Positions 13,391 through 52,376 of a DNA stretch of 64,000 nucleotides are shown piece after piece. Every line of letters starts with the position of its first letter. Position 1 is the stretch's first letter. The notes beneath the pieces were generated by a model. The model searched no databases, was not told where the DNA came from, and saw only the letters and a list, made by a program, of their open reading frames with translations. A program made the translations under genes and the position numbers. Source of the DNA: Rickettsia sp. (GTDB lineage Bacteria > Pseudomonadota > Alphaproteobacteria > Rickettsiales > Rickettsiaceae); the NCBI GenBank assembly GCA_023269695.1, contig JAHFPS010000001.1:44366-108365 (forward strand), written 5' to 3'.

Positions 13391-13557
13391 TATAACTAAC
13401 CAGGGCTAACATTACGCCAAATTGACAAATGTCATTGCGAGAAGCCACTTTAGTGGCGACGAAGCAATCCAAGATTAGAGATGGATTGCCACGACCACTA
13501 CGTGGTCTCGCAATGACACTAGTTTACTATGGCAAAATACTAATCGAGTTAGCTATA
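13391..13557. mobile_element. Shell-A MITE providing the glmU stop codon
   Basis: TATAACTAACC...GAGTTAGCTATA. Confidence 0.88.
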
Positions 13558-20548: not shown

Positions 20549-22120
20549 ATGTCATCATTTGTTTCACAAAAATATAAGAATATAGGTATAGTTGGTTTGG
20601 GTAAGACTGGTATGGCTGCTTATCAATCATTAAATAAAGTAGCTAGGATAATTTGTTATGATCAAGTAAGTAGCAGTAGGGATGCTTTCAGTAAAATCTA
20701 TGGAAACGATAATTTGGTTAGCTTATCTGATCGGCGGTGGCAGGAGCTTGATAAGATACTACTGAGTCCAGGCGTTTCCTTGTCGCATGATATTGTTACA
20801 ATGGCTAATTCCCGTAATATACCAATAACCTCAGATATAGACCTATTATTTGAGGAGGTTAAGTTCAGAGGGGGCAATAAAGCTAATTTCATTGGTATAA
20901 CTGGTACTAATGGTAAGAGTACTACCACAGCTTTAACCGGTCATATTTTACAATTTTGTAATTTTGATTACCTAGTTGGCGGAAATATTGGTTTTCCTGC
21001 TTTAAGTATGGGATTAGATTGTCAAGGATATGTATTAGAGCTATCTTCATTTCAGTTAGACTTATTAAGCAGTTTTAAAGCTAAAATTGCTGTGCTTCTT
21101 AATATTACCGAAGATCATTTAGATCGACATAATAATATACAAGGCTATATTGCCGCTAAAAAGAAAATCTTTGATCGAATGGATAAAGATTCATTTGCTA
21201 TAATTAGTGTTGATGATGAAATTACCAACAATATCTTCCTAGAATTAGAAAATGAAAATAAAACAAATATAGTACCAATCTCTGTTGGTAAAATCCTTGA
21301 TAAAGGAGTGTCAATTTGTAATAATGTTGTTTATGACAATATTTTTGAACCGATTACTATTAATCTCCATAATAATAGTTCTTTACAAGGCATACATAAT
21401 CAAGAAAACATTGCCGCTAGTTATGCAGCTTGTCGGATTATAGGGGTAAGACCAGAACAAATAATTGCTGCCATCGAGTTGTTTAAGGGGTTGCCGCACA
21501 GGATGCAATATGTTGGAGCAATATACTCAGATCATTCGAATATAGCTAATCCGATTAGCATTACGCCAAATTCACAGACGTCATTGCGAGGAGCCACTTT
21601 AGCGGCGACGAAGCAATCCAGAAAAGTGATTAGAAATGGATTGCTTCGTTCGGGCTTCGCACCTCCTTGCAATGACGCCAGTTTACTATGGCTAAATGCT
21701 AGTAAGGTTAGCTATATGATAAATTTTTATAATGATAGTAAGGCTACCAATGGCATTGCTGCTTCTAAATCCATTGCAGCACTTGATAATATATATTGGT
21801 TAGCTGGAGGGGTGGCAAAAGAAGGGGGAATAACAAATTTAGAGCCATGGTTTGATAAAATTCGTAAGGCTTATCTTTTCGGTCAAGATAAAGAACTTTT
21901 TGCATCGTCACTTAAGGGCAGGGTAGATTTCCAAATTTGTCATGATTTACAGGAGGCTTTTAATGCTGCCGTTAGGGACGCAATGCAGGATATAGGGGAT
22001 ATAAAAAATATCTTGCTAGCTCCGGCTTGTGCCTCTTACGATCAATTTAAAAATTTTGAAGAACGTGGAAATCTATTTATAGAATTATATAATATTATTG
22101 CTAATCATGATCAAAGATAA
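20549..22120 (+). CDS. murD: UDP-MurNAc-L-Ala:D-Glu ligase with a 58-aa in-frame insertion
   Basis: ITGTNGKSTTT, ELSSFQL, LNITEDHLDRH, GLPHR, NDSKATN, LAPACASYDQF. Confidence 0.96.
   Translation: MSSFVSQKYKNIGIVGLGKTGMAAYQSLNKVARIICYDQVSSSRDAFSKIYGNDNLVSLSDRRWQELDKILLSPGVSLSHDIVTMANSRNIPITSDIDLLFEEVKFRGGNKANFIGITGTNGKSTTTALTGHILQFCNFDYLVGGNIGFPALSMGLDCQGYVLELSSFQLDLLSSFKAKIAVLLNITEDHLDRHNNIQGYIAAKKKIFDRMDKDSFAIISVDDEITNNIFLELENENKTNIVPISVGKILDKGVSICNNVVYDNIFEPITINLHNNSSLQGIHNQENIAASYAACRIIGVRPEQIIAAIELFKGLPHRMQYVGAIYSDHSNIANPISITPNSQTSLRGATLAATKQSRKVIRNGLLRSGFAPPCNDASLLWLNASKVSYMINFYNDSKATNGIAASKSIAALDNIYWLAGGVAKEGGITNLEPWFDKIRKAYLFGQDKELFASSLKGRVDFQICHDLQEAFNAAVRDAMQDIGDIKNILLAPACASYDQFKNFEERGNLFIELYNIIANHDQR
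21541..21716. mobile_element. Shell-A MITE in frame within murD
   Basis: TATAGCTAATC...GGTTAGCTATA; 176 bp including both TA, net 174 bp. Confidence 0.93.
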
Positions 22121-22132
22121 TCATAATAATGA

Positions 22133-22290
22133 ATTCACCTTACGCATGGCATTTAAAAATTGCAAAAAAGTACAAGATGTCATTGCGAGACCACGTGAGT
22201 GTAGTGGCAATCCACATTCATTAGATTGCTTCGTCGCCACCAAAGTGGCTCTTCGCAATGACGCCAGGCTGTGTTATGCGTAAGGTGAGT
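22133..22290. mobile_element. Shell-G element at the murD/ftsW junction
   Basis: ATTCACCTTACGCAT...ATGCGTAAGGTGAGT TIR; AATGA direct repeats at 22128-22132 and 22291-22295; core inside. Confidence 0.88.
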
Positions 22291-23418
22291 AATGAATTAT
22301 CTAACAATTACCTAAAATGGTGGTGGCGTAGTATCGACCAGCAAATGATTATTGCTTTAATAATCCTGTTTGTTTTTAGTATGATGTTAGTTACCACAGC
22401 AGGGTCAGCAGTAGCAAATAGAATAGGGCTTAATGAGCATTATTTTGCCTCTAGACAATTAATTTATCTTGCTAGTGCCTCGTTACTTATCATTATTTTT
22501 GCTTCTTTCTCAAGAAAATGGCTAAAGAGATTATCAATTATAGGATTTATTGCCAGTATAGTATTATTAATTTTAGTTAGATTTTATGGTTATGAGGTTA
22601 AGGGTGCTATTCGTTGGATTAATATTCTAGGTCTTTCGATGCAGCCTTCAGAATTTATAAAACCATTTTTTGCGGTAGTGGCGGGCTGGATATTATCATT
22701 GAAATTTGAGGGAGAGTTCCCAAGTTTTTCTATCTGTATAGTTCTATATGGTATCATTGCCTTATTATTAATTATCCAGCCAGATTTTGGTATGTTAGTT
22801 ATGGTTACTGCAGTTTTTGGTATTCAACTTTTTATTGCAGGTATGCCGATATTTTGGATTATACTGGCTATTTTTATGTTGCTATTTGGCGTTACAGTGG
22901 CTTATTTTTGGTTGCCTCATGTAGCACAAAGGATTAATAGTTTTTTTGATCCGGAGAGTATTAGTAATTATCAAGTTAGTAAGTCAATTAGAGCATTTGA
23001 GCATGGCGGTTTGTACGGTTGTGGTCCTGGTGAAGGAGCGGTAAAACAAGTATTGCCGGATTCTCATGCTGATTTTATCTTTGCCGTTGCTGGTGAGGAA
23101 TTTGGAGCAATTATCTGCTTGATAATTGTAGGAATATTTGCTTTTATAGTGATTCGTAGTTTACTAAAACTCATTAATGAAGAAGATAAATTTACTCAAT
23201 TGGCAGCAAGTGGTATTGTTGCACAGATAGGTTTACAAGCAATAATTAATATAGGTGTTACCTTGAATTTATTACCAACCAAAGGTATGACCTTACCCTT
23301 TATCAGTTATGGTGGTTCTTCAACTTTTGCCATAGCTATTGCTACAGGGATGTTGCTTGGTTTTACCAAACATAAAACTTCTCTTACTAACTATAAAATT
23401 CAAGATATTGATATATGA
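22276..23418 (+). CDS. ftsW: Cell division SEDS protein FtsW
   Basis: GAIRWI, MQPSEFIK, QPDFG, PDSHADFIF, LPFISYGGSS; start ATG lies inside the G TIR. Confidence 0.95.
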   Translation: MRKVSNELSNNYLKWWWRSIDQQMIIALIILFVFSMMLVTTAGSAVANRIGLNEHYFASRQLIYLASASLLIIIFASFSRKWLKRLSIIGFIASIVLLILVRFYGYEVKGAIRWINILGLSMQPSEFIKPFFAVVAGWILSLKFEGEFPSFSICIVLYGIIALLLIIQPDFGMLVMVTAVFGIQLFIAGMPIFWIILAIFMLLFGVTVAYFWLPHVAQRINSFFDPESISNYQVSKSIRAFEHGGLYGCGPGEGAVKQVLPDSHADFIFAVAGEEFGAIICLIIVGIFAFIVIRSLLKLINEEDKFTQLAASGIVAQIGLQAIINIGVTLNLLPTKGMTLPFISYGGSSTFAIAIATGMLLGFTKHKTSLTNYKIQDIDI

Positions 23419-24491
23419 AGAATATAATTGTTGTTGGTGGCGGTACGGCAGGTCATCTGTTTCCCGCTATTGCTTTAGGTGAAGAATTAGTGAAACGCGG
23501 GTATAAGTTACACCTTATTACTGATGTTAGATGTCAAAAATATTTAACTGAAGATTTACTGCTCATTCCACATATAATGAATTTTAGATTACCACCTAAA
23601 GGGTTATTTAATAAGTTTAAATTATTGATTTCTTTATTATTTGTGACTTTTAAGATGTTATTGCTATTAGTGCAGACTAAACCTTGTGTTATAATTGGGT
23701 TTGGTGGCTATCCAACAGCTGCTCCTTTGATAGCGGCTGTATTGTTACGTATTCCTATTGTAATTTATGAACAAAACTGCTTTATTGGTAAAGTTAATAG
23801 ATTTTTCCTAAAATGTGCCAAGAAAGTTGCTCTTACCTATGAGGAAACTAAAAATTATAATATTGTTGATAATAACAAGAAATTGGTTATAGGAAATATA
23901 GTACGGGAGAATGTTAAAAAGCTGAAAGTTAAGGATAATTTTAGCAATGATACTTTCCGAATATTCATTTTTGGTGGAAGCCAAGGAGCAAAGATTTTCT
24001 CTACTTTAGTACCTGAAGCTATTAAAATATTAGTGCAATCAAACCCTGATATTAAACTACATATTACCCAGCAAGCTCTTCTAGAAGATCATGATAATAT
24101 TGTTAAAATTTATAGTGAGTTAAATATCCCACATAAAGTATCTGATTTTTTTTATGATATGGATCAGCAATATGCAAATCAAGAGCTAGTAATATCAAGA
24201 GCTGGGGCGTCAACTATTTCTGAGCTTAGCTATATTGGCTTGCCGGCAATTTTTATTCCGCTACCTGCGGCTGCTGAAAATCATCAATTCTATAATGCCA
24301 AGGCTCTGGAAGATAGTGGGGCAGGGTGGTGTTTTGAACAAAATAAAATCACTGCAAAAAAATTAGCAGATAAACTCTTAGTGCTAGTAAAGAATCGTGA
24401 TATATTAGAGCGGGCATCTCGTGAATTATTAAAGCGAAGAAATGACGGTAGTACAGTTTTAGCTGATACAGTAGAAGAAATAATAAACTGA
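23415..24491 (+). CDS. murG: MurG glycosyltransferase
   Basis: GGGTAGHLFP, GFGGYP, GGSQGA, ISRAGAST. Confidence 0.97.
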   Translation: MKNIIVVGGGTAGHLFPAIALGEELVKRGYKLHLITDVRCQKYLTEDLLLIPHIMNFRLPPKGLFNKFKLLISLLFVTFKMLLLLVQTKPCVIIGFGGYPTAAPLIAAVLLRIPIVIYEQNCFIGKVNRFFLKCAKKVALTYEETKNYNIVDNNKKLVIGNIVRENVKKLKVKDNFSNDTFRIFIFGGSQGAKIFSTLVPEAIKILVQSNPDIKLHITQQALLEDHDNIVKIYSELNIPHKVSDFFYDMDQQYANQELVISRAGASTISELSYIGLPAIFIPLPAAAENHQFYNAKALEDSGAGWCFEQNKITAKKLADKLLVLVKNRDILERASRELLKRRNDGSTVLADTVEEIIN

Positions 24492-25424: not shown

Positions 25425-25599
25425 CGTCATTGCGAGCAGTAGCCTTGTTGAGATGAAGCAATTGTAAGATGTCATTCCCGCGTAGGCGGGAATCTAGATC
25501 CCTGCTTTCGCAGGGGGATGACACAAAATTAGATTGCTTCGTCGCCATCAAAATGGCTCCTCGCAATGACACCAAGCTGCTTTATTCAGGTTAGCTATA
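25425..25599. repeat. Core with A right TIR supplying the transporter stop
   Basis: GGTTAGCTATA at 25589-25599 overlaps the stop at 25591. Confidence 0.85.
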
Positions 25600-32592: not shown

Positions 32593-32757
32593 CAGGGCAG
32601 TTTAAAAGTCGCAGAAAAATAACCGACGTCATTGCGAGAAGCCACTTTAGTGGCGACGAAGCAATCCATAAAAGTGGATTGATTCGGAGGTCCTATGACC
32701 TCCTCGCAATGACGTTCCGGGTTTTTTAACCGGTCTTCACGACTTTTAAATTGCCTG
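32593..32757. mobile_element. Shell-B MITE (ISAs1-like CAGGG ends) with 9-bp TSD
   Basis: CAGGGCAGTTTAAAAGTC...GACTTTTAAATTGCCTG; CAAAATTTA at 32584-32592 and 32758-32766. Confidence 0.92.
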
Positions 32758-52044: not shown

Positions 52045-52376
52045 CTAACCCGAGAAGGTTTTAGCCATAGTAAAGGTGATGTTATTGCGAGGGGGCGTAG
52101 GCCGCACAACTGTCGAAAGTTAGAAGGGGAGGGGGTTTTAGGCAAGGTAGTTTAAAAGTCGTATGTGACCAACGTCATTGCGAGACCACGAAGTGGCATG
52201 GCGATCCACATTCATTAGATTGCTTCGTCGCCAAAATGGCTCCTCGCAATGATGCCAGGCTGTTTTCTCTATGACTTTTAAATGCCATGCGTAAGGTGAG
52301 TGATTAAGATCCTGAAACAAGTTCAGGATAACACATTTGGGTTTTAACCATTCTTTACGACTTTTAAACTGCCATG
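52040..52376. repeat. Composite A/C/B/G repeat cluster between convergent genes
   Basis: A TIR at 52040; C left at 52105; core at about 52173; G right end 52287-52301; B-type end 52359-52376 inside fmt. Confidence 0.85.

Follow-up and report, generated by a model that had tools for sequence, protein, structure and literature searches.

A palindromic repeat element splits ftsW in a Candidatus Tisiphia genome and probably supplies the present start codon of the gene

RESULTS

A palindromic element lies within the 5′ end of ftsW

We analyzed a 64-kb stretch of contig JAHFPS010000001.1 (the window, i.e., the whole stretch of 64,000 nucleotides [nt]), in which the cell division gene ftsW lies between murD and murG and is interrupted near its 5′ end by a repeat element. 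Based on relatives of the FtsW protein, the host is Candidatus Tisiphia, an insect symbiont of the Torix group of Rickettsiaceae. The window has 33.6% G+C, and palindromic repeats are dense throughout it. In the list of open reading frames (ORFs), the order of the cluster is murD, ftsW, murG. As it now reads, ftsW extends from 22276 to 23418 on the forward strand; its product is 380 amino acids (aa) long from ATG 22276 and 377 aa long from GTG 22285, and residues 24–367 match the Pfam domain FTSW_RODA_SPOVE. A preliminary description of this stretch had proposed that an element with terminal inverted repeats (TIRs) broke the start of ftsW and then donated a new one; all of the positions it gave hold in our analysis.

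The element proper occupies approximately positions 22133–22290 (about 155 bp) and is inserted between codons 9 and 10 of ftsW. Its left TIR, TCACCTTACGCAT (13 nt; 22135–22147), and its right TIR, ATGCGTAAGGTGA (22276–22288), are complementary at 13 of 13 nt, which confirms the TIR-bounded structure. The same terminus as on the left occurs in two related genomes (L003 and L005) and at 52299–52273 in the window, and the right TIR holds ATG 22276, TAA 22281, and GTG 22285. Outside the TIRs lie two copies of the 9-nt direct repeat TAATGAATT, one on the left (22127–22135), which is present in single copy at empty sites, and one on the right (22290–22298), where the original ftsW sequence resumes with codons N8, E9, and L10. 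Sequence comparison within the window identified an inner palindromic core (GTCATTGCGA ... TCGCAATGAC; 22179–22262) of the type seen in Rickettsia palindromic elements (RPEs), so that the element consists of an outer TIR pair enclosing a GTCATTGCGAG...CTCGCAATGAC core. Its predicted fold has a free energy of −66.6 kcal/mol (z = −6.3). The ORFs of the element are 31–61 aa long and have no Pfam match, and none is longer.

The element has the properties of a MITE (miniature inverted-repeat transposable element), namely, TIRs, a flanking duplication with an empty site, small size, multiple copies, and no transposase ORF; the length of the duplication is unusual, and it differs from the 4-nt duplication of a second element in murD. 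The element shares with RPEs a stable hairpin palindrome and many dispersed copies in a Rickettsiaceae genome, some of them inside ORFs, but it departs from them in that the ftsW copy is out of frame, such that the host frame is not preserved and the element is not translated within the host protein. In its architecture, in its host family, and in the peptide that it encodes, it resembles an RPE; the label RPE-like is based on the architecture and on the core and peptide that we take to be typical of RPEs. Rfam contains no RPE family, and as a candidate for a known RNA family, the element gave matches to Rfam at chance level only.

Related strains have an empty site and an uninterrupted FtsW N-terminus

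In at least 17 related strains or read sets, exactly 163 bp are missing at this site. The representatives of three Tisiphia species (L002, L003, and L004) read ...ATGATCAAAGATAATCATAATAATGAATTATCTAAC... without interruption, and in Logan contigs from 11 runs (X3, X4, X5, X8, X9, X15, X17, X18, X19, X23, and X24), position 22126 is joined to position 22290. The interval that is skipped in the relatives is 22127–22289 (163 bp), with 9 letters ambiguous; because the boundary slides by 9 nt, the missing DNA, which comprises the element and one copy of the direct repeat, can equally be placed at 22136–22298.

More than 30 annotated FtsW proteins from Tisiphia, each 381–382 aa long, begin MIKDNHNNELSNNY(I/L)KWWWRSID, and the empty-site relatives read MIKDNHNNELS from the ATG equivalent to position 22107. 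After in silico removal of the 163 bp, the window FtsW is 382 aa long and matches these element-free orthologs. The N-terminus is thus as the preliminary description had reconstructed it by fusing ATG 22107 to ftsW, and the orthologs do not start downstream of the interrupted segment, which would have pointed to a noncoding segment. Moreover, the tail K-WWRS-D-Q is conserved across Rickettsiaceae genera, with codons that change synonymously, indicating that the interrupted segment of ftsW is coding and translated.

A more distant Tisiphia genome (L082, 1885–2040; protein P0019) has an in-frame, nonpalindromic insert of 129 bp (43 codons) after ftsW codon 4, and the N-terminus of its protein is MVKN[...43 aa...]HHNNELSNNY. 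The N-terminal tail of FtsW seems to be a spot that is either repeatedly hit or tolerant of insertions.

The insertion removes the ancestral start from the ftsW frame

The two direct-repeat copies are spaced 163 nt apart, and since 163 = 54 × 3 + 1, the insertion shifts the frame, as had been proposed. The ancestral ftsW start, ATG 22107, now heads a 58-codon ORF on the forward strand (22107–22283) that overlaps the end of murD and consists of nine ftsW codons followed by an element-encoded, RPE-type peptide. The product of this ORF is MIKDNHNNEFTLRMAFKNCKKVQDVIARPRECSGNPHSLDCFVATKVALRNDARLCYA, and its stop codon, TAA 22281–22283, lies within the right TIR; frame, length, and stop all agree with the preliminary description. 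The ftsW frame itself contains a TAG stop at 22222. Given a length that is not a multiple of three and the in-frame stops, ATG 22107 no longer leads into FtsW.

Between TAG 22222 and the WWRSID motif, the only canonical starts (ATG, GTG, or TTG) in the ftsW frame are ATG 22258, ATG 22276, and GTG 22285, and all three are element sequence. ATG 22258 (22258–22260, forward strand), the first in-frame ATG past the stop, lies in the element core and is not conserved in the filled alleles of L001 and L005. ATG 22276 and GTG 22285 do lie in the TIR and in the ftsW frame, as had been noted. The next canonical in-frame start, ATG 22345, corresponds to ancestral Met26 and is located beyond the WWRSID motif. 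Upstream of the tail, no canonical start is available outside the element; an FtsW that retains this conserved tail must therefore begin at a codon of element DNA.

Initiation at one of the two TIR starts is predicted to give the N-terminal peptide (M)RKVSNELSNNYLK or (M)SNELSNNYLK. The substituted residues (MIKDNHNN to MRKVSN or MSN) belong to the least conserved part of FtsW and lie outside the Pfam domain. Judging from the alignments, a TIR start would thus leave both the K-WWRS-D tail, which is conserved, and the complete FtsW/RodA domain in place, with the first eight, poorly conserved residues replaced.

The rest of the gene is intact. ftsW is full length in every filled allele that can be read (the window, L001, and L005). 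Between the window and L001, both of which are filled, the ratio of nonsynonymous to synonymous divergence (dN/dS) is 0.087 at a dS of 0.19, and it is 0.08–0.24 over all ftsW pairs. The filled alleles have diverged from one another at a dS of 0.12–0.19, with dN/dS of 0.09–0.19. Evidently, ftsW is still in use and under strong purifying selection.

Filled alleles differ in their junctions and interiors

Two unrelated read sets, X1 (an organism run) and X2 (groundwater), yielded contigs of 100% identity that extend into the element from either side, with even depth. Beyond the window, filled alleles were found in L001, L005, and X7, as a minor allele in X4, and, by inference, in the genome encoding protein P0141. 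For L001, the right junction alone is covered, as the contig ends within the element; it reads ...GGGGGTTATGCGTAAGGTGAGTAATGAGTTATCT, and its right TIR is identical to that of the window. In the air metagenome X4, window positions 22126–22342 are represented by an empty-site contig at a depth of 34 together with a contig that starts from 22273 in the right TIR at a depth of 13.5. P0141, a 377-aa protein annotated by the PGAP pipeline in the Tisiphia endosymbiont of Thecophora atra, begins MSNELSNNYIK and falls in the NNYIK subclade, which is not that of the window. Such a beginning is explained only by a filled allele read from the GTG, which is why P0141 is counted as filled.

The L005 allele (1996–2262 on a contig of a metagenome-assembled genome) contains an element 246 nt in length, which has two RPE-type cores and an interior unlike that of the window copy. 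By its net length, the insert leaves the ancestral ATG in register with FtsW, although two stops in that frame (TAG and TAA) separate them. L005 has the same long right flank as X7, is missing 6 nt on the left, and is short of one G in the right TIR. The X7 contig is unchanged over 22273–22289, and its right junction contains six additional bases (GGTGAG-TCATAA-TAATGAATT), so that the flanking repeat is (G)TCAYAATAATGAAT(T), 14–16 nt long, and FtsW would read MRKVSHNNELS.

Given the 14–16 nt of the X7 repeat, that of the window, at 9 nt, has probably been shortened. The preliminary description had reported a target duplication of AATGA; a flanking repeat is indeed present in the window and can be counted as 5 or 9 nt, but this does not appear to be its original length, as comparison of the junctions suggests that it is most likely the remnant of a longer duplication after a 6-nt deletion. 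The most economical history is a single old insertion that came with a long duplication and later underwent small deletions, among them the loss of CATAAT on the right in the window and L001. Independent insertions in the window and L005 were considered on account of the 6-nt offset of their junctions and their different interiors, and this reading became less economical once X7 was found to share the long right flank of L005. Recurrent insertion may still have taken place. Secondary changes in and beside the element (the 6-nt flank deletions and rebuilt interiors) argue that the insertion is not very recent.

In a tree based on ftsW–murG, filled and empty alleles are intermingled: the window groups with the empty L002 (98.5% bootstrap), and L005 groups with the empty L003 (100%). 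This pattern implies that alleles recombined, that the element was lost precisely between the direct repeats, or that it was gained more than once.

Start codons available and annotated in filled alleles

Independent gene callers place the start of ftsW at ATG 22276 in the window genome (P0121, 380 aa). This ATG is in the ftsW frame in the window, in L001, and, based on contig differences, in X7. GTG 22285 is the only start that is in frame in every filled allele with readable DNA (the window, L001, and L005). In L005, the 1-nt deletion puts the ATG out of frame and an in-frame TAA directly precedes the GTG, so only the GTG can serve there as a TIR start; the two annotations of this allele begin at the GTG (IMG; P0122, 379 aa) and at Met26 (PGAP; P0124, 357 aa). 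PGAP also called the GTG in P0141, at 377 aa.

In the predicted mRNA fold, the probability of being unpaired is approximately 0 over 22270–22290; the start region as a whole (22261–22296) is predicted to be fully paired, and opening it costs about 31 kcal/mol. The sequence GGTGA at 22284–88 lies downstream of both candidate starts and is thus not well placed as a Shine-Dalgarno sequence. An outward promoter was considered, and no promoter-like site was predicted on the forward strand of the element; nor was the hairpin predicted to be a terminator, and it has no U-tract.

Other copies of the element

The 15-mer ATGCGTAAGGTGAGT occurs at 22276 and at 52287, and its reverse complement occurs with one mismatch at 22133; these are three matches in the window, compared with 0.09 expected. 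The preliminary description had taken the match at 52287–52301 as a sign that the 15-mer is derived from the element. This is borne out, as the 15-mer lies at one end of another family copy (52131–52301), the right end of which (...AAATGCCATGCGTAAGGTGAGT) is intact and the left end of which is degenerate. The termini of the element recur at 52273–52301 in the window, in L003 and L005, and in the metagenome contig L084, the last being the one copy detected when metagenomes were scanned with the terminal 20-mer. In none of the three other readable copies (52287, the L003 end, and L084) does the outward-facing end open a downstream ORF; a stop follows within 6–14 codons.

The core resembles several dozen other stretches of the window, 16 of them with E ≤ 1e-8; examples of core-like stretches are 1196–1280, 13431–13518, 25528–25585, 32627–32681, and 52174–52266. 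Many short ORFs of the window encode repeat-derived peptides of the ...TKQS...DCFVA...RNDA type. In L084 (1690–1815), the copy ends ...ATGCGTAAGGTGAGTTAGCTATAT, where the terminus of the ftsW element meets GGTTAGCTATAT, the murD element's terminus motif. Based on these junctions, the termini of the repeats appear to be layered or nested and not fixed.

The neighboring genes murD and murG

The gene murD (20549–22120, forward strand; 523 aa) was identified from the ORF list, its Pfam matches (Mur_ligase_M and MurD-like_N), and alignment with relatives. Its stop codon lies at 22118–22120, so that its 3′ end shares 14 nt with the ancestral start of ftsW, and it is not affected by the ftsW element. 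The gene murG (23415–24491, forward strand; ORF list) overlaps the ftsW stop by 4 nt (ATGA). With the 14-nt overlap of murD and ftsW and the ATGA of ftsW and murG, stop–start overlap is the local rule in this cluster. Based on the ORF list and Pfam, murD, murG, and the remaining genes of the cluster are intact.

murD has an RPE-type insert of its own (21540–21713 in the window). This insert is 174 bp long and in frame, encoding 58 aa (NIANPISITPNSQTSLRGATLAATKQSRKVIRNGLLRSGFAPPCNDASLLWLNASKVSY); its termini are AGCTAATCC.../...GGTTAGCT, and it is flanked by the 4-nt repeat ATAT (GTAT at empty sites). It is missing from all of the relatives compared (L002–L005 and L082). The window strain therefore has two repeat insertions less than 600 bp apart, one in frame (murD) and one out of frame (ftsW). 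In Rickettsia spp. (L006, L008, L009, L010, and L014), murD and ftsW are apart, and the spacer contains other palindromic repeats 100–250 nt upstream of ftsW, e.g., ...CTGGATACCGTGGTCAAGCCACGGGGTGACATCGAG.... The murD–ftsW junction has thus been invaded in Rickettsia proper too, there outside coding sequence.

DISCUSSION

Which start codon does ftsW use?

We propose that an RPE-like repeat split ftsW and that FtsW now begins at a start codon within the right TIR, either ATG 22276 (MRKVSNELS...) or GTG 22285 (MSNELS...); we assign this reading a probability of roughly three in four. The idea that a TIR start rescued the disrupted gene, put forward in the preliminary description, is supported in that only element starts precede the conserved tail and in that ftsW is intact and under purifying selection.

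In the window strain, the likeliest route to this start, and a plausible one on the predicted fold and the positions of the codons, is the coupling put forward in the preliminary description, from murD through the element peptide to ftsW. Ribosomes would still initiate at ATG 22107 and read the 58-codon ORF through the hairpin, melting the terminal stem of about 20 bp in which the new start is buried. From the point where they would terminate, 8 nt beyond the first base of ATG 22276 and 1 nt ahead of GTG 22285, they could reinitiate there by termination–reinitiation. Such coupling requires that stop and start overlap or be separated by a very short gap, and at ~20 nt it no longer occurs (PMC10666635; PMC6728339); in the window, TAA 22281–83 lies at −8 nt relative to ATG 22276 and at +1 nt relative to GTG 22285, within these distances.

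Several observations weigh against a TIR start or against coupling as the way to reach it. No convincing, well-placed Shine-Dalgarno sequence precedes ATG 22276 or GTG 22285. In L005, the ORF that begins at the ancestral start stops ~135 nt short of the GTG, and the ATG is out of frame; coupling of this form is therefore not conserved among filled alleles. Among the RNA runs examined, none carries the element-bearing allele: the metatranscriptome X21 (same sample) contains one repeat fragment only, and runs X15, X23, and X24, which are possibly RNA, contain the empty allele only. Because filled and empty alleles are intermingled, it is uncertain how old the insertion is and, with it, for how long the filled form has been under selection. 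Finally, the Pfam domain starts at residue 24, so a start at ATG 22345 would leave it entire, and this Met26 is exactly where PGAP began the L005 protein (P0124, 357 aa).

The domain boundary and this annotation favor an alternative in which FtsW of filled strains starts at ATG 22345, with the cytoplasmic tail lost and the ATG and GTG of the element irrelevant. The match to FTSW_RODA_SPOVE begins precisely at Met26, and the TIR starts are buried in a predicted stem. We nevertheless consider a Met26 start unlikely. The tail that it would discard, K-WWRS-D-Q, is conserved across Rickettsiaceae with synonymous changes; it has neither an indel nor a stop in the window, L001, or L005, and the X7 contig is ungapped there apart from its 6-nt insert. 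The K and R of the tail are, in addition, the only positive charges ahead of the first transmembrane segment, and Met26 has neither a Shine-Dalgarno sequence nor a nearby upstream stop from which it could be coupled.

Another possibility is that the TIR start is used but is exposed by RNase III cutting the terminal stem and not by coupling, leaving an ftsW mRNA that is leaderless or has a short leader from approximately AUG 22276. In favor of this, the terminal stem measures ~20 bp within the −66.6 kcal/mol hairpin, Correia elements are documented to be cut by RNase III at their terminal repeats (PMC10969869), and this route would work in all alleles, including L005, which lacks the coupling geometry. 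However, GTG is a poor leaderless start, and the reading is purely inferred, down to the position of the cut. We judge it improbable, slightly more so than initiation at Met26.

It is also conceivable that ftsW is inactivated, i.e., a young pseudogene in a degrading endosymbiont genome, with a downstream ORF that has not yet decayed. A frameshifting insertion within the first codons, a window saturated with repeats, and the fact that empty alleles are far commoner than filled ones would fit such a history. Yet the ORF is full length wherever filled alleles are visible (the window, L001, L005, X7, and, by inference, P0141), and these alleles have diverged (dS 0.12–0.19) at the low dN/dS given above; the secondary changes in and beside the element argue against a very recent insertion, and murD, murG, and the other genes of the cluster are intact. 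A pseudogene is thus very unlikely.

Least credible of all is that ribosomes from ATG 22107 reach the ftsW frame by a +1 frameshift (22225–22281) or by hopping between the duplicated AAT-GAA-TT codons, yielding FtsW that either includes or lacks 54 inserted aa: with identical repeats on its two sides, the very stable hairpin would be bordered by matching codons for take-off and landing, and both frames are open together for 57 nt, but there is no known shift-prone motif, GCG-UAA is unable to re-pair in the +1 frame, the L005 geometry differs, and 163 nt is several times longer than any translational bypass known to us.

Going beyond initiation in the TIR as such, the sequence ATG-CG-TAA-G-GTG can be pictured as a compact stop-and-restart cassette, with a stop for the incoming frame and two outward starts, that makes out-of-frame landings in the first codons of a gene survivable. 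FtsW synthesis would then be under a hairpin of ~30 kcal/mol that only upstream ribosomes open, and the long-lived polymorphism of filled and empty alleles would be a selectable change in the dosage of a division protein instead of a neutral scar. We regard this extension as speculative and doubtful.

Significance

RPEs are textbook selfish DNA that survives in genes by staying in frame, and the ftsW locus shows a second route of survival, in which an out-of-frame copy among the first codons of an essential gene for peptidoglycan and division is tolerated, in our reading, since the end of the element supplies the start. The empty site in sister strains, together with the diverged filled alleles, constitutes a natural allelic series that bears on how start sites are re-created after disruption, on the dispensability of the cytoplasmic tail of FtsW, and on the reliance of hairpin-masked starts on upstream ribosomes. 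It is relevant to annotation as well, as pipelines gave three different N-termini for such alleles (380 aa in the window; 379 and 357 aa in L005; 377 aa for P0141).

Comparison with known systems

In the account of Ogata et al. 2000 given in PMC10969869 and PMC3767692, what allows classic RPEs to stay in genes is that they keep the reading frame and are translated along with the host protein. The ftsW element is similar in being a multicopy palindromic repeat of ~150 bp in Rickettsiaceae, in having a small-peptide frame (..DCFVATKVALRNDA..), and in being tolerated inside an essential gene, and the neighboring murD insert (174 bp, 58 aa) has the classic in-frame form. Unlike these, the ftsW copy is out of frame (163 bp) and splits its gene, and it appears to be tolerated via a start from its terminal repeat. 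In our searches of the open-access literature, we found no description of RPEs in Tisiphia or of a case like the ftsW element.

Repeats that contribute to gene starts have been reported elsewhere: REP2 of Neisseria and inverted-repeat sequences of Borrelia bring a promoter, a site for ribosome binding, plus an ATG (Delihas 2011, PMC3184786), and BOX, RUP, and BRE repeats lengthen the 5′ ends of genes (PMC3184786). As with REP2-type repeats, a dispersed repeat at ftsW would give a host protein its start codon and first residues. However, REP2-type repeats sit upstream of genes with the full set of promoter, ribosome-binding site, and ATG, whereas the ftsW element has no predicted promoter or good ribosome-binding site; furthermore, it landed inside an essential coding region and replaced an existing start, and the empty allele persists in sister strains.

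Correia elements of Neisseria are MITEs with outward promoters, a site for integration host factor, and RNase III cleavage at their TIRs (PMC10969869). The ftsW element is likewise a TIR-bounded MITE that is cotranscribed with the gene downstream, and its long mRNA hairpin is likely to govern the expression of that gene. In contrast to Correia elements, it has no predicted outward promoter, and its proposed effect is on translation start and not on transcript level.

The proposed route also resembles termination–reinitiation (Huber et al. 2019, PMC6728339; 2023, PMC10666635) in that an upstream stop overlaps or abuts the starts and the start is masked by predicted structure, which a ribosome coming from upstream would melt. 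It differs in that the upstream ORF is a by-product of the insertion and no gene, and in that an overlap of 8 nt is less common than distances of −4 or −1.

Since repeats that carry start codons are already known, donation of a start by a repeat is not new in kind. What is new at this locus is the replacement of an existing start in an essential division gene by an RPE-like element, the packing of stop and starts within a TIR, and a natural series of empty and variously decayed filled alleles.

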